From: a virus
Lineage: Duplodnaviria > Heunggongvirae > Uroviricota > Caudoviricetes
Length of the DNA: 25,134 nt
Virus record (IMG/VR): IMGVR_UViG_2737471840_000004
Location: 1 to 25,134 of that record
Strand: one strand, 5' to 3'
Made by a program: the position numbers and the translations under genes. Below the pieces are notes generated by a model. It made no database searches. It saw only the letters and a list, made by a program, of their open reading frames with translations, and was not told where the DNA came from. This document shows positions 14,905-25,134 of the stretch, one piece after another (positions within the stretch are counted from its first letter, which is position 1; each line of letters opens with the position of its first letter).

Positions 14905-14980
14905 TGGTGGCCCCTACCGGACTTGAACCGGTGACCGTGCGATTATGAGTCGCCAGCTCTAACCACTGAGCTAAAGGGCC
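14905..14980 (-). tRNA. tRNA with CAU anticodon (Met, or Ile2 if lysidine-modified)
   Basis: Hand-folded 76-nt cloverleaf: GGCCCTT acceptor, GCTC/GAGC D-stem, anticodon loop CUCAUAA, TTCAAGT T-loop, encoded CCA. From memory it resembles ileX-type tRNA-Ile2. Confidence 0.85.
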
Positions 14981-16761: not shown

Positions 16762-17226
16762 ACTTGCCGGGTACGTCTCCGGCGAGGGCTTCCACCTCCG
16801 TATGCTTTTCGGCGCACCGCGCCCTGGCTGCAATTCGGTAACAGGGGATGCACAACCCTGGCTTCCAGCGTGATTAGCGCCTTCAGCATGACGGGATATA
16901 CCCGTAAATTCGTGGAACTGTACCCAAAGTGCTGTTAAGCACCGCTGTTACGCTGAAAAGAAAACGCAACAGGAAAGGACGCTGACCAACAGATGGCCCC
17001 TTCTCGTTCATCTGGTTAATCACACCAGCGCCCTTACCTGTTGTGCCTCCCCGTTCCCTAATACACAGACGGGGACACTCTGCGGTCGATTTTTTGACGG
17101 GGGACGACTCATACCCCGTGGCGTCTGGCTTCTTAGGCCGCTACCATCATCAGATCATCGTTTGCATTTACTTTAATGGTCAGTTTCTAAACCGCCGCAA
17201 AGTCGCTAACCATGACGAAAACCCTG

Positions 17227-17252
17227 AAAAAAACGCCCACCCGAAGATGGGC
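17227..17252 (-). terminator. rho-independent terminator on minus strand
   Basis: Minus strand GCCCATC-TTCG-GGTGGGC (7-bp stem with one G-U pair) followed by GTTTTTTT; in the plus sense the wobble becomes a C-A mismatch. Confidence 0.55.
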
Positions 17253-17409
17253 AAACTGGAAGCTCGTAACGCACTTCGGCGTTGCCACTTAGGCGCATGG
17301 TCAACCTGGCAACTCGGTGGTTTGTCTGGGAGGACTAGGCCCAGCCATGCTTACCGCCGCGCCTGTCGCGGCTAACAGCTAAATCGCTCTATAAATCACG
17401 ATTCATTGA

Positions 17410-17443
17410 GGCGATATTACACTAATAAATTTATTAGAGCAAT
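17410..17443 (-). promoter_or_regulatory. putative leftward promoter with palindromic operator
   Basis: Minus strand TTGCTC, 17 nt, TAATAT; the core motif is part of the perfect 16-bp palindrome CTAATAAATTTATTAG (17422-17437) and overlaps the last codons of the methyltransferase gene. Confidence 0.45.
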
Positions 17444-19698
17444 ATACCCAAAACGTCATGAGCTACACCTCGAGTGTCCCCCTTACAAGACACAGAACGT
17501 CTGGCAAAAAGAGGTTCCACTCTGAAGCCACTGTCATGATAAAGCTCTCTGATGTTTGGCGCGCCACTGTTAGTAATGAGAACCTTTGCACCTCGACGAT
17601 GAGCATCCGTCAACAGAGACACCAGGCGTTTTTGCTCTTCAAACTTAAAGTCATGACCGGAATAGTTCGTGAATCCCTCTGTATTTGGAAGCGGTTCATA
17701 CGGCGGATCGCAAAAGATGACATCTCCTTCTCCGGCAGCTTCAATCACCGCAGCAAAATCACCGCATACAAACTCAGACCGCCCTTCCGCACCGAGGAAG
17801 GCTTCCATCTCCTGTAATGGGAAATACGGAGTTTTATACTTCCCATAACCGACATTGAACTCACCGGCCTGGTTGTAACGCGTCAATCCGTTAAAACAAT
17901 GTCGGTTCAGGAACAAAAACGCCGCTGCGCGATGTAAATCATCATAGACTTGTTTGTTAAACGCATTCCGTACTGCCAGGTATCCTTCCTGTGTGTTGTA
18001 GTCCTGGAAGAAACGATGTGCCAGAGTGATAAGTGAATGCGCCTCGCGTTGCAGAGTCTTGTAAAAGTTAATCAGGTCAGCATTCACATCATTTAGCAGA
18101 TTTTCCTGGTATCCGGCATTCATGAAGACAGCTCCGCCACCAACGAAAGGTTCAATCAGGCGCTTCCCTTCTGGCAAATAGCGAAAGATTTGTTCCAGAA
18201 CACCAAATTTTCCACCAGCCCATTTGAATATGGACCGTTCGAATTCTGCCGCTGGTTTAACTTTTCGCTCTTTTGTTTCACTTCCTTCTTTCTGCCGACA
18301 TACGGCCTTAGTAATCCGATCGCCAATCCAGCGCATTACTGGTATTGCCATACTATTGCCGATCGCTTTGTAACGCGGTCCGTCAGCTGCAAGCATCGCG
18401 GCCTCTTCTTCGCTTAAATCTGGATAGTGATTGCGAAGATATGCCAGTTCATCTGAATTAACTTTTTTACGCTTTTCCGTCGGGATCAACGTATGCCCAT
18501 CAGGAAAACCTTGCAGCCTTTCACATTCGACAGGGGTAAGACGGCGGACAGCTACTTCTGCGTTTCTTACTTCATAGCAAACAGCTGTTGGATTTTTAGC
18601 CATTAGAGATGGTGAAGTATTCTTAGTTGCAGCATGTTGTGTACCGCTCATACGCTCAGGAAAAGCCAATGTAACAAGATGCTCATGGCTTTCTTGCTCA
18701 CGTGCCCGCAATGTACCATGCCCTTCTGACCAAAAACCTGCTCCTGTGCTGCTAAAAACGGCAAGGTCAGTGGCATCTTTAAAATCTCTTGCCTTTACTG
18801 TCGATGCGGTTTCATCGTCAATATATTCCCCAAATGCTGCCATCCTGAAAGCGTTTACGGCTTTCGTCGATTTCATACCGGGTGGCATGTCAGCGTGTAG
18901 GCATGGATTTAGGCTTTCGCCACTGATTGCAGCGCCATTTGCAATAATGGCGGAAGCGATTTCCTTCTTTTTTCGGCTCGGCGCAATATTCCGGCGCACG
19001 CCTTCGAACTCAAAAAGTACCGTTGCGGGATCGAGGTCTGTTCGAGCACTTGCGACAACAAACACGCGTCGGCGTCGTTGTGCCACTCCGAAGTATTGGG
19101 CATCAAGGATTCTCCAGGCCACCTTTCGCTGCGGTCCATAAATACAACCACACTGTGGCCACTTTGGAGCATGGCAACCGGTTTTGCCATCCCACCGCCA
19201 GAACGCGTTACTTTTTCCTGATTCAGGTCGATCACCTGGTTCAAATGGCGCATCTTCTCCAGCCAATCCGGCAAGGAAACATCCGAAGGCGTTATCTGCC
19301 GATGACAAAACTCCTGGGACATTTTCCCAGACGATAACTGTCGGTTTGAGAAATGACTCAGCCCGTTTGTCGTCAATTGCATTTGCAAGCTCCACATACT
19401 TTAAAGTTAGCGCGCCACGCTCATCATCAAGCCCACCACGTAATCCAGCGATACTGAATGCCTGACAAGGTGTTCCCCCGACGAGCACATCAGGGGATTC
19501 GATTTCCCCAGCCAGGACTTTTTTGGCAAGTTTTGTCATGTCGCCAAGGTTGGCGACATGGGGCCAGCGGTGCGCAAGAACGGCAGATGGAAAAGGCTCG
19601 ATTTCAGCAAACCACGCCGGACGCATACCCAACGGTTCCCAGGCAATACTCGCGGCTTCAATTCCACTGCAAACAGATCCATAGCACAGCTCTTTCAC
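17434..19698 (-). CDS. bifunctional DNA methyltransferase: N-terminal C5-cytosine MTase fused to C-terminal Dam-like N6-adenine MTase
   Basis: 754-aa ORF. N-terminal half has C5-MTase motifs ([48 protein letters not shown]); C-terminal ~270 aa has Dam-type FKWAGGK and DPPY. ATGA overlap with rdgC. Confidence 0.9.
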
Positions 19699-20600
19699 TG
19701 CTTAGCCTCTCCACCAAGGGCATTTACCAGAGCATCAACCAGGCACGAAATTTCACTGGTCAACAGGAAGAAATCTGCGTCCAGTCGCTGCGCTACATCT
19801 TCACTATCAATATCAGAGTTCTGATCAAGCAATTCATCCGCAAATTTGACGCTGGTAAGGCTGAAGTTATGGTCCAGTGTAAATTTAATGCGGTTCTGCC
19901 AGTCGAGTGCCAACTTAGTGACGAGCTTGCCAGCTTCCAGGTGTGTGGAAATTTCATCGCTTCCCAAATCCTGCTTTTTCACTCGGGCAATACCGCCATC
20001 CTCAAGCACTGCCTTAAGTTCTGCCGCATCCCCCATTTGAAATCCCTGTGGAGCACTACCATCACGTACCCAGTCGGTCAGCGTTAATTCAATGGGATTT
20101 TCAACACTCAGGGGAACAACAGGAAGAGAACCCAGAGACTTACGCATAAGCGCGAGCATATCCTCTGCCTGCCGCGCGCTGGCATTGATATAGATACGTT
20201 TAGTTGAACCGTCGTAGATCGCCTGGATAACAGAAAACTTTGAAAAAGCCCGTGGCAGAAGAGAATGCAGAACTTCGTCTTTCAGGGAGTCCTTCTCTGT
20301 TTTCTTCAGTTTACGCGCTTGTTCTTGCTCAAGTTTTTCAATTTTTTCTTGAATAGCTCGCTGGATAACCGGCGGGGGAAGAATTTTTGTTTCGCGCTTT
20401 GCTTCAACAAGGATAAAACCATTTCCATGCATAGCGATAACTTCGGAATTATCACCAAATGGAGATACAAAACCGAACTTGGCCATATCCTGACTACCGC
20501 ATGGCGTGAAAAGGATCATTTTCTTTTTATCTTCTAAGTCGGTCAGATCCGCCTCACGAGAAAGTTTATAAATAGTAATGTTTTTCCAGTGCTTAAACAT
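19695..20600 (-). CDS. rdgC: recombination-associated protein RdgC
   Basis: Collinear with RdgC as I recall it ([63 protein letters not shown]). True start taken as internal ATG 20598-20600; the track start at 20714 adds a non-conserved extension. Confidence 0.85.
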
Positions 20601-20877: not shown

Positions 20878-20935
20878 CTGACGACTCCAAACAAATGCCC
20901 ATTGAAGGGCGATGGCTGAATGGTACCGAAAATAC

Positions 20936-20966
20936 GACATAAAAAACAATATTTATTAGAGCAATT
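20936..20966 (-). promoter_or_regulatory. putative leftward promoter with ATTGCTCTAATAA motif
   Basis: Minus strand TTGCTC, 17 nt, TATGTC; near-identical over 20 bp to the 1602-1621 copy; heads the ORFan-rdgC-MTase operon. Confidence 0.4.
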
Positions 20967-22767: not shown

Positions 22768-23148
22768 ATGTCTGATAAAGTAACAGTAAAGCAAACTATC
22801 AACAAAGCGACTTCAATCTACAAAATTGAGCAAATCACTGTTGGCAAGCCAGGATCTGAACAATACCGTCGTGCTTTCGAGCTTGCCGATCAGCTTGGTT
22901 TAAAACACCCGGATTGCATTGAGCATGTATTTCCGACCTATGCTGATGAGCAATGTACTCATGTTCTTACCGAAGAGGATTTTTTCAGCACTGAAGAACG
23001 AGAAGGCGTTGATCGCTGTATTGGTGTGATTTGCTCTTCAGTGAGTTATGAGTTATTCCCTAATGTCCATGAAGATGGTGGTATTGGATACCAATTCCTG
23101 TACGAAGGCGATGAGCTTAAATGTTATCAAGCATCGCCGGAATTTTAG
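22768..23148 (+). CDS. hypothetical protein
   Basis: 126-aa ORF with AGGGA 6 nt upstream; acidic, several Cys; last rightward gene before the apparent chromosomal junction. Confidence 0.5.
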   Translation: MSDKVTVKQTINKATSIYKIEQITVGKPGSEQYRRAFELADQLGLKHPDCIEHVFPTYADEQCTHVLTEEDFFSTEEREGVDRCIGVICSSVSYELFPNVHEDGGIGYQFLYEGDELKCYQASPEF

Positions 23149-23209
23149 GCTTGAAATTGATCATCGCATTCTCCATTCGTTTTGAGTTACAAGAACCCAA
23201 TGCTGGAGG

Positions 23210-23635
23210 TTACGGGAGGGAGTGCATAAACATGGGCTGTGGAAGTGCCCTTTTTGAGCAAATAAGGAAATCCTGAATTGTGTGGGAGAGTGTGTTCAGC
23301 GTGGTGTGCTTGGTCAAGACCGAATGGGCTACGGATTGAGAGGGCACGATGGGTGCATGCTGTCTGTCTGCTGATTGCAGTAAAATTAGTGGGATGACGC
23401 CACAACTCATAAAAAAAGGTTTAATTGGCGGACTGGAGTGCGTCTCGCTAATAAAACTGTATAAATCCGCGATCACCAGATGCGGTTTCCATTGCAAAAT
23501 ATGCTCTTTTGCTAACAGGAGATTATTGATTCCTGATACCAGAAATGAGGAGCTGAACCTGCCAGAATGATTAAGCAAGGCCTCTATCCCTGTGCGGGTA
23601 AAGTGGCACCGGTCAATCACTAAAATTTTAAGCAT
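23210..23635 (-). CDS. RcsA/LuxR-family N-terminal-like domain protein without HTH (possibly truncated)
   Basis: 141-aa ORF; N-terminus LKILVIDRCHFTRTGIEALL resembles the RcsA-type pseudo-receiver start; no C-terminal LuxR helix-turn-helix and no room for one before the next gene. Confidence 0.4.
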   Translation of the reverse strand: MLKILVIDRCHFTRTGIEALLNHSGRFSSSFLVSGINNLLLAKEHILQWKPHLVIADLYSFISETHSSPPIKPFFMSCGVIPLILLQSADRQHAPIVPSQSVAHSVLTKHTTLNTLSHTIQDFLICSKRALPQPMFMHSLP

Positions 23636-23830
23636 AAACGTTTCGCATTCAGAAGAGGGGCAATCGACTTTCTGGTTTCAGAAAGCCCTTCATCATAGAG
23701 AACTCCGATGAGTGCCAAATGCGGGAACTACGCCGCTAATTATGCTTAATTCTTGCTTTTAGCAGGCGGTGAATAAAAAGGTTGAAATTCATTTTCTTCC
23801 GGGCAAAAATGCCATTTCACACATTAGCTT

Positions 23831-23874
23831 TGCAGGACGACCTGCAAACGCTTCTTTCACCGGGGACGGCCCCA
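23831..23874 (+). promoter_or_regulatory. guanidine-II riboswitch (mini-ykkC) upstream of sugE/gdx
   Basis: Two hairpins with ACGR tetraloops: tgcagg-ACGA-cctgca (23831-23846) and gggg-ACGG-cccc (23862-23873), 15-nt linker, then GGAG and ATG at 23892. Confidence 0.6.
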
Positions 23875-23891
23875 TTGTTCTGGAGCCTGAT

Positions 23892-23938
23892 ATGTCCTGG
23901 ATCGTTTTATTAATTGCAGGTTTGCTCGAAGTTGTCTG
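23892..23938 (+). pseudogene. sugE: sugE/gdx 5' fragment, interrupted by IS insertion
   Basis: MSWIVLLIAGLLEVV matches the SugE/Gdx N-terminus; the frame then runs into the IS end GTAAGCG at 23938 where the conserved Trp codon would be. Confidence 0.7.
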
Positions 23939-25134
23939 TAAGCGTCAACGGAGCACCGTATTGACGCTTATTTATTGGTGAGTACTACGTTCCATGGCAG
24001 GAGTTCGTCAACTCGGTTGGAAGGCCATTCCGGCAGTACGCTCAGGATATGGCGCATATACGCTTCCGGATCGATACCGTTCAGACGGCAGGTGCCGATC
24101 AGCCCGTACAACAGTGCTCCACGCTCGCCGCCGTGATCGCTGCCAAAGAACATAAAGTTTTTCTTTCCGAGACAGACTGCACGAAGCGCTCTTTCCGCAG
24201 CATTATTATCCGCCTCCGCCAGACCGTCATCACTGTAATAACAGAGGGCATCCCACTGATTCAGTACATAGCTGAACGCTTCGCCCAGTCTGGATTTTTT
24301 CGACAGCGTACCATTCTTCTCCACCATCCATTCATGCAGCGACGTCAGTAACACTTTGCTTCGCTGCTGCCTGACGGCAAGACGCTCTGACTCCGGTAAT
24401 CCCCGTATTTCATCCTCGATGGCGTACAGTTCACTGATTCGCTTCAGGGCTTCTTCTGCCGTCGCACTTTTGCTGCTGATGTATACATCGTGGATTTTTC
24501 GCCGGGCATGGGCCCAGCACGCAACTTCTGTCAGTGCACCACCTTCACGTTCTGCACTGAACAACCTGTCGTAACCTGTGAACGCATCCGCCTGCAGGAT
24601 ACCCCGGAAGGGGCGGAGGTGTTGCTCCGGGTGTTTCCCCTGCCGGTTCGGCGAGTACGCGAACCAGACCGCTGGAGGAGATGACGAACCCACATTGCGA
24701 TCATCCCGGACATACGTCCAGATACGCCCTGTTTTCGCCTTTTTCTGACCCGGTGCCAGTACCTTTACCGGTGTGTCATCAGTGTGAACCTTGCGGGTGT
24801 TCATTACATAACGGTACAGGGCATCATTCACCGGTGTCATTAACTGGCAGCACGCGTCAACCCAGTTGGAGAGTAAGGCCCGGCTCAGTTCGACACCCTG
24901 GCGGGCAAAGATTTCACTCTGACGATACAGTGGCAGATGTTCGCAGTATTTTCCCGTTAACACGCGGGCAAGTAATCCGGGGCCCGCGATACCACGCTCT
25001 ATCGGGCGGGACGGCGCCGGTGCTTCAACAATACAGTCACATTTTGTACAGGCTTTTTTTACCCGTTCTGTGCGGATCACTTTCAGGGCACTGCTCACCA
25101 GTTCCAGCTGTTCAGCGCTGACTTCCCCCAGATA
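23938..25134. mobile_element. IS66-family insertion sequence, right end only (continues beyond right edge)
   Basis: Terminus begins GTAAGCGTCAACGG (IS66-family ends begin GTAA); contains a minus-strand IS66 transposase ORF whose stop lies 30 bp inside the end. Confidence 0.8.
23968..25134 (-). CDS. IS66-family transposase (TnpC), C-terminal portion
   Basis: Contains CWAHARRK and DDTPVKVLAPGQKKAKTGRIW; the frame stays open upstream of the track start (a GTG at 25098) to the window edge, so the N-terminus is outside the window. Confidence 0.9.
   Translation of the reverse strand, partial: YLGEVSAEQLELVSSALKVIRTERVKKACTKCDCIVEAPAPSRPIERGIAGPGLLARVLTGKYCEHLPLYRQSEIFARQGVELSRALLSNWVDACCQLMTPVNDALYRYVMNTRKVHTDDTPVKVLAPGQKKAKTGRIWTYVRDDRNVGSSSPPAVWFAYSPNRQGKHPEQHLRPFRGILQADAFTGYDRLFSAEREGGALTEVACWAHARRKIHDVYISSKSATAEEALKRISELYAIEDEIRGLPESERLAVRQQRSKVLLTSLHEWMVEKNGTLSKKSRLGEAFSYVLNQWDALCYYSDDGLAEADNNAAERALRAVCLGKKNFMFFGSDHGGERGALLYGLIGTCRLNGIDPEAYMRHILSVLPEWPSNRVDELLPWNVVLTNK

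Follow-up and report, generated by a model that had tools for sequence, protein, structure and literature searches.

The window analysed here, a 25,134 nt stretch of DNA from a Caudoviricetes record in IMG/VR (IMGVR_UViG_2737471840_000004), carries three overlapping genes, uhr, hrdC and dmt, the last of which encodes a fused DNA methyltransferase (Table 1). On sequence identity, the locus is the long-described uhr–hrdC–dmt operon of a P1-type phage-plasmid. A 4-kb region containing it is 99.0–99.3% identical to bacteriophage P1, RCS47, JL22 and other Punavirus genomes, in which the genes are labelled dmt, hrdC (or rdgC) and uhr, and the segment of P1 from ∼63 to 85 kb is the collinear counterpart of the whole window. 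Dmt itself shares 749 of its 754 residues with P1 Dmt (AAQ14041.1), and this near-identity, together with the matching context and operators, identifies it as the P1 Dmt orthologue. The annotation of Dmt and HrdC in P1 dates from the 2004 genome record (GenBank AF234172); given the 99% identity to P1, the locus is therefore already described rather than new. That record calls Dmt a ‘bifunctional DNA methyltransferase’ acting on N6 adenine in GATC and ‘perhaps at C5 cytosine’, and HrdC a hypothetical recombination-associated protein of the RdgC family. The same block occurs in 585 plasmid records, most of them non-mobilizable E. coli phage-plasmids.

Table 1. Positions of genes, domains and regulatory elements of the uhr–hrdC–dmt operon in the 25,134 nt window.
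Feature	Position	Strand	Basis or remark
Op68 (Odmt), C1 repressor operator, ATTGCTCTAATAAATAT	20949..20965	-	One mismatch to the 17-bp consensus; abuts the Pdmt promoter (about 20920-20949)
uhr, first operon gene, 94 aa	20593..20877	-	P1 annotation; PHROG 2213, E 8e-64
hrdC, full-length RdgC-family protein, 301 aa	19695..20600	-	PF04381, NF001462, PDB 2OWL
GTGA overlap, dmt GTG start on hrdC TGA stop	19695..19698	-	Sequence checked; kept in 78/80 P1-like IMG/VR loci
dmt, bifunctional DNA methyltransferase, 754 aa	17434..19698	-	GTG start; stop TAA 17434-17436; Pfam and NCBIfam domain matches
C5-cytosine methyltransferase domain, aa 1-470	18289..19698	-	Motif alignment to M.HhaI; Cys78 codon 19465-19467
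Target-recognition region, aa 237-384, between motifs VIII and IX, P1-type cassette	18547..18990	-	Sole strongly divergent P1/P7 segment
Dam-type N6-adenine methyltransferase domain, aa 487-754	17437..18240	-	FVGGG and DPPY; match to E. coli Dam structures
Op72ab (Oban), bivalent C1 operator with ban promoters	17416..17443	.	Exact match 17427-17443 (-); two-mismatch match 17416-17432 (+); P1 annotation
Terminator-like hairpin and T-run	17234..17253	-	8-bp stem with 5 GC pairs, then TTTTTTT

The resemblance to P1 (AF234172) extends to the gene order, the 4-nt and 8-nt gene overlaps, the Op68 and Op72 operators, and the dicF-like region and tRNAs downstream. The two Dmt proteins differ at five amino acids, including position 74, which is glycine in the window and tryptophan in laboratory P1. 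Neighbouring genes in the window are likewise annotated P1 genes (uhr, hrdC, upfB/C, tRNAs, tci (tciA) and ban), while the non-P1 segments hold an IS66-family transposase, an Ead/Ea22-like protein and ORFs without assignment. The Dam protein of phage P7 (AAQ07538.1, 672 aa) is encoded in the same operon and shares the catalytic framework, with ∼97% DNA identity outside the variable region. P7 differs in having a shorter, unrelated cassette between motifs VIII and IX, which are separated by 97 residues in P7 vs 179 in the window.

Both gene junctions of the operon are overlapping. The end of uhr runs 8 nt into hrdC (ATGTTTAA), and the hrdC stop and dmt start share 4 nt in the context caGTGAaa (junction sequence GCTAAGCAGTGAAAGAG), with a Shine-Dalgarno-like GGAGAGG ending 7 nt upstream of the dmt GTG. 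The preliminary description had reported an ATGA overlap at this point, from which it read rdgC and the methylase as one expression unit. The 4-nt overlap is real, although its letters are GTGA, and the two genes are indeed translationally coupled; the unit, however, has three genes (uhr–hrdC–dmt) and is C1-repressed at Op68. Position 20600, where that description ended the unit, is the annotated ATG start of hrdC. Uhr gave no match in Pfam, NCBIfam, PDB or PADLOC; its PHROG match carries the putative label ‘nucleoside triphosphate pyrophosphohydrolase’.

Seven C1-operator-like sites were found in the window, against 0.16 expected by chance. The Pdmt/Odmt region, which includes the annotated sigma-70 promoter Pdmt upstream of uhr, is 97% identical to the annotated P1 region. 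At the other end of the operon, Op72ab covers the last codons and stop of dmt and, according to the P1 annotation, controls the downstream ban operon. Because the C1 operators are conserved, and because the P1 and P7 records annotate Op68/Op72ab as controlling the operon, its genes are expected to be off in the prophage and on upon derepression. The operon would then belong to the lytic or derepressed programme, as is annotated for P1 and P7 and suggested here by conservation. In the prophage state, C1 repressor bound to Op68 would hold the operon off, and induction or infection would lead to expression of the three translationally coupled genes together. Transcriptomes show hrdC and dmt to be co-regulated, and both are under-induced together in an hfq mutant (bioRxiv 2025.12.28.696737). 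In a CRISPRi knock-down in a normal host, uhr, hrdC and both halves of dmt were scored as non-essential (PMC10695390).

A strong intrinsic-terminator-like hairpin lies ∼180 nt 3′ of dmt, within the annotated dicF-like region. The dicF-like feature of P1 maps to window positions 17218–17319, and an Rfam scan of this region at the gathering threshold gave no DicF match. An internal late promoter for a Dam-only product, as predicted in P7 (LPdam2), was also considered. A −22 box with one mismatch (AAGTTAATT) occurs at 18456–18464, and was rejected as a candidate with ∼4.8 such boxes expected by chance.

HrdC closely resembles the host protein RdgC. It matches PF04381 (E 1.1e−97, 327 bits) and NF001462 (378 bits vs a 330-bit cut-off), and aligns with E. 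coli RdgC (PDB 2OWL) from residue 5 to 300, essentially end to end (E 7.6e−114). Across 54 alleles the pN/pS of hrdC is 0.11, a rough value because all comparisons use the window allele as a single shared reference. As a near-host-like RdgC, HrdC presumably binds DNA and damps RecA on replicating phage DNA.

The overlap between hrdC and dmt raises the question of whether the two products form a functional pair, for example one in which RdgC-type control of RecA is tied to the methylation state of the DNA. Such a pairing would agree with the conservation of the GTGA overlap in 78 of 80 P1-like loci in our IMG/VR survey, with the similar purifying selection on both genes and with their joint under-induction in the hfq mutant. 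The wider distribution of the two genes argues against it, and we consider it very unlikely. RdgC homologues occur in 441 phage records, and in the five non-P1 lineages inspected (Nonanavirus, two Vibrio phages, Hollowayvirus and Aeromonas phiARM81ld) no methylase abuts or overlaps rdgC. The gene lies instead in early replication/recombination modules, and in two of the five an unrelated methylase is found 1–3 kb away in the same early module. Conversely, relatives of the C5 domain are for the most part encoded by stand-alone genes. Among the best 150 Dmt representatives at 50% identity, the C5 and Dam fusion is found in about seven besides Dmt itself, and most of the remainder are shorter and match mainly the C5 half; when eight of the shorter proteins were aligned, six proved to be stand-alone C5 methylases and two had a different C-terminal domain. 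The absence of an abutting methylase in the five lineages and the small number of C5 and Dam fusions together indicate that tight hrdC–dmt coupling is a feature of the P1 lineage; the rdgC–methylase linkage is peculiar to it and is no general module. Coupling of hrdC and dmt would accordingly be best viewed as co-expression within an early DNA-metabolism programme, rather than as a dedicated two-protein machine.

Dmt was initially described as a single 754-aa polypeptide with a C5 methyltransferase motif set and a Dam-type domain. Pfam, NCBIfam and motif alignments agree on this, and the catalytic residues of both domains are intact when aligned to M.HhaI (C5) and E. coli Dam. The Dam half is assigned to the Dam family by PF02086 (D12/Dam, aa 493–725, E 1.1e−56) and TIGR00571 (dam, 249.8 bits vs a cut-off of 114.85), and contains both the FVGGG and the DPPY (CDPPYE) motifs. 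It aligns with E. coli Dam structures (2G1P) over residues 4–266 of 278 aa (E 3e−58), which is essentially the entire host protein; unlike the host enzyme, it is phage-encoded and fused to a C5 methylase. Its score of 244 bits against the NCBIfam equivalog for host Dam falls under the 441-bit cut-off, and it is therefore a family member and not an orthologue of host Dam. The pN/pS of the domain is also roughly 0.11, calculated from P1-like IMG/VR alleles against the window allele.

The function of Dmt in P1 is taken here from the GenBank annotation and secondary papers. P1 packaging requires GATC methylation at pac, and dmt is therefore essential in Dam− hosts (PMC12707154; PMC11437467). GATC specificity of the Dam half in the window can be presumed from this P1 literature, being carried over by the 99% identity. 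The Dam domain would methylate the GATC-rich pac site, allowing the pacase to cut and headful packaging to start, and would thereby free the phage from dependence on host Dam, with the gene dispensable in dam+ hosts. GATC occurs 98 times in the window vs 97.7 expected, and thus gives no compositional signal. The established role of the Dam half is GATC methylation of pac, making packaging independent of host Dam. The proposal in the preliminary description that the protein is an anti-restriction methylase does not hold for this half, whose documented role in pac-site methylation is needed only in dam− hosts.

The same description had called the methylase an orphan with no restriction endonuclease adjacent, and our searches bear this out. 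PADLOC and Pfam analysis of the neighbouring ORFs and of the non-P1 segments of the window yielded no nuclease or defence-system model; PADLOC returned methylase models only, the best being ‘orphan methyltransferase’. With no endonuclease in the window, ‘orphan’ is the correct term, and the locus lacks the cognate endonuclease beside the methylase that would make it a Type II restriction-modification system. Elsewhere in its genome, P1 has the res/mod genes of type III EcoP1I, which come with a Mod subunit of their own. That Dmt might be the modification half of a restriction-modification system with its endonuclease nearby can be dismissed for this window with near certainty, given that all its neighbours are annotated P1 genes and that none matches a nuclease or defence model.

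The C5 half required closer consideration. It matches PF00145 (C5 DNA methylase) in two stretches (E 2.8e−36, 126 bits vs a cut-off of 22) and TIGR00675 (dcm, 117.4 bits vs a cut-off of 100.65). In the alignment to M.HhaI, the catalytic Cys78 (PCQ), ENV, QRRRR, the motif IX block and GNS are all at the expected places. The M.HhaI counterparts of motifs IV, VI and VIII are C81, E119 and QKRER; motif VIII of the window protein reads AQRRRRV and motif X reads AIGNSMA, with motif IX also present and the variable region lying between VIII and IX. Motif I reads CSGIEA vs FxGxG, retaining the central glycine and having E and A in place of the last two glycines. However, CSGIEA shows at least 90% conservation across 13 relatives with identities as low as 45%, many of which are stand-alone C5 methylases. 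Conservation across the subfamily marks it as a normal subfamily motif and not as decay, and this form of motif I is probably functional. The catalytic Cys, ENV, QRRRR and GNS are invariant in relatives over the same range. Among the 80 P1-like IMG/VR loci surveyed, Dmt is full-length in 75, and in these the catalytic motifs are almost without exception intact. The three segments of the C5 core gave pN/pS values of 0.13, 0.07 and 0.20, and the P1-type recognition region 0.28; these are rough values, as substitutions were counted against the window allele only and related alleles were repeatedly counted. Constraint on the C5 core (0.07–0.20) is comparable to that on the Dam domain (0.11).

The searchable literature reports no m5C activity or target site for Dmt, and the RefSeq name of the protein refers only to the Dam family. 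The C5 domain could be regarded as an inactive evolutionary remnant, with the protein working only as a Dam methylase. The cautious ‘perhaps’ for C5 in the P1 annotation, the Dam-only RefSeq name and the departure of motif I from FxGxG would all fit this, as would the tryptophan beside the catalytic PCQ of laboratory P1, for which no phenotype is reported. Selection on the C5 core nevertheless remains purifying, the four catalytic elements stay the same in relatives as distant as 45% identity, CSGIEA is typical of its subfamily, and residue 74 is glycine in 75 of 75 natural alleles, all of which make an inactive domain unlikely. The C5 half is most likely functional, i.e., a catalytically complete, predicted active m5C methylase.

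The surroundings of the catalytic cysteine vary among P1-like phages in two further respects. In relatives, Dmt alleles of 960–1148 aa contain a ∼341-aa insertion directly before this cysteine (GGTP/CFTAGH...VVHN/CQAFS, slashes marking its boundaries), which comprises Hint and LAGLIDADG domains and has canonical intein junction residues; the 960-aa form is without the endonuclease part of the insertion. Of the 75 alleles, 18 have the intein, and these represent three recognition-cassette backgrounds; phage RCS47 and an isolate named ‘P1 del res del mod’ carry it as well. The window allele has no intein and reads GGTPCQAFS uninterrupted, the intein-free site lying at 19467/19468. Literature searches on an intein in P1-like dmt and on the dmt of RCS47 turned up no relevant paper. 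The second respect is residue 74, one turn before the catalytic Cys, where the laboratory P1 reference has W and the window, like all 75 natural alleles, has G; the window residues here are the canonical GGTPCQ.

Almost all of the difference between the P1 and P7 proteins lies between motifs VIII and IX. Among the 75 alleles this recognition region falls into four length classes, with motif VIII-to-IX spacings of 97, 179, 232 and 287 residues, and its cassettes are built from modules that are found also in distant relatives. The solved structures of M.HhaI and M.HaeIII align with the conserved core only; since the recognition region gave no alignment to either, no target sequence can be deduced from them. 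A conserved core combined with a swapped cassette is the pattern expected of an active enzyme under diversifying specificity pressure. The N-terminal domain is thus most likely an active m5C methylase, and the exchangeable segment that separates motifs VIII and IX would determine its specificity. The C5 half would probably serve to methylate progeny DNA in advance, shielding it from restriction in the host infected next, and an anti-restriction role for it is plausible from the sequence comparisons.

Whether such a role extends to the protein as a whole, as proposed in the preliminary description, is a separate matter. Dmt would then be primarily a solitary anti-restriction methylase that shields phage DNA from the restriction enzymes of its hosts. 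No cognate endonuclease accompanies it, its operon is predicted to be expressed only in lytic growth, as is the case for protective orphan methylases (PMC12707154), and its recognition region is cassette-swapped among alleles that are otherwise 95–99% identical, which fits diversifying restriction pressure. The phenotype documented for dmt, however, concerns methylation of the pac site and the yield of phage in dam− hosts, and since nearly all enterobacterial hosts already supply GATC methylation, the Dam half adds little protection there; nor does the searchable literature contain a protection assay for the C5 half. We therefore regard anti-restriction as the primary function of the whole protein as rather doubtful, and favour a division of roles in which the Dam half serves pac and protection, if any, would fall to the C5 half.

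A parallel for the C5 half is offered by the multispecific C5 methylases of the Bacillus phages SPR and phi3T (PMC12707154). Like Dmt, these are orphan, phage-borne enzymes that are expressed on induction and whose target-recognition region, again located between motifs VIII and IX, can be exchanged. Unlike Dmt, they have no fused Dam domain, and the multispecificity is theirs; the comparison is by description only. A more extended scenario can be put forward tentatively, and with slightly less than even confidence. In it, the C5 half would be an active m5C methylase, and at least four exchangeable cassettes, some possibly with more than one recognition module, would set which restriction systems are evaded. 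The intein on the catalytic cysteine would gate activity in part of the population, and the G74W change in laboratory P1 may have weakened the enzyme, which could explain why its activity has never been characterised.

Taken together, these data allow us to say with high confidence that the window carries uhr–hrdC–dmt of a P1-type temperate phage-plasmid (genus Punavirus), in which a C1-repressed operon encodes an RdgC-like HrdC and a methylase with a Dam half for pac and a C5 half that is likely active. The window thus re-identifies a textbook phage locus, one that hundreds of sequenced phage-plasmids from E. coli and Salmonella carry. Phage-plasmids of the P1 type contribute to the spread of resistance genes, and what distinguishes their Dmt alleles is precisely the part of the C5 half that chooses which sequence is methylated. 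The activity of the C5 half, and what it may protect against, is in this respect a small question about host range.

Variation among the alleles of Dmt, the two-domain DNA methyltransferase, was concentrated in the target-recognition region of its C5-cytosine half, where cassettes have been swapped between motifs VIII and IX while the remainder of the protein is 95-99% identical (alignments A1, A2 and A4 of Dmt with its relatives). The spacing between the two motifs is 97, 179, 232 or 287 residues, and the cassettes are assemblies of modules that also occur in distant stand-alone methylases. Some cassette classes contain several PTL-type motifs, a hint that these may carry more than one recognition module.

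Many Dmt alleles are also interrupted by a class-1 intein of about 341 aa, comprising a Hint domain and a LAGLIDADG homing endonuclease, inserted directly N-terminal to the motif IV catalytic cysteine (GGTP/C...HN/CQAFS, slashes marking the junctions). It was present in 18 of the 75 IMG/VR alleles, on backgrounds of three recognition-cassette types; intein-related examples include the relatives P0001, P0105, P0092 and P0002 and loci such as L006, L033 and L064. A 960-aa form of Dmt bears a mini-intein without the endonuclease, and the allele of the window has an empty site. A literature search for an intein in P1-like Dmt found no publication.

Close to the same cysteine, residue 74 is glycine (GGTPCQ) in the window, in P7 and in all 75 natural alleles, whereas the laboratory P1 reference (L001, AF234172) has tryptophan (VLVWGTPCQ). 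Trp74 of that reference may be a laboratory-lineage mutation adjoining the catalytic cysteine.

Features of Dmt and of the regions around it in the window
Feature	Positions	Strand	Remark
Left end unmatched to P1 pmgT-V region	1-993, 1110-1370
Ead/Ea22-like protein	334-876	-
195-aa ORF	839-1426	-	family search: no match
tRNA-Met (CAT)	14905-14980	-	ARAGORN call
plp-region segment	16342-16507		short; no match in P1
'dicF-like' region (P1 annotation)	17218-17319	-	conserved
Terminator hairpin	17234-17253		strong
Cassette swapping, motifs VIII-IX	18547-18990	-
Equivalent intein point	between 19468 and 19467	-	empty site
Codon 74 of dmt	19477-19479		Gly
Foreign DNA	23135-25134		in place of P1 oriR/repA region
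Guanidine-II riboswitch	23829-23873	+	47 bits; precedes truncated sugE-like ORF
ISEc23 (IS66-family) transposase	23968-25098	-

Elsewhere, the window departs from P1 at both ends, the left one coding for the Ead/Ea22-like protein and the 195-aa ORF. The foreign DNA at the right end also encodes a 141-aa regulator-like ORF, on the strand opposite to the riboswitch and sugE-like ORF, for which a family search returned no match. The plp-like ORF is 139 aa long, compared with 125 aa in P1. The orthologue of the tRNA is recorded in P1 as tRNA-Ile2 (ileX-like) rather than tRNA-Met, its CAT anticodon presumably being modified to lysidine. The hairpin closes the dicF-like region, which scored below the Rfam gathering score for every family.

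Two further relatives, P0179 and P0163, share the C5 core of Dmt but carry another C-terminal domain, with an NPPY motif (alignment A4). This different domain suggests that C5 and N6-adenine fusions arose more than once within the C5 subfamily of Dmt.
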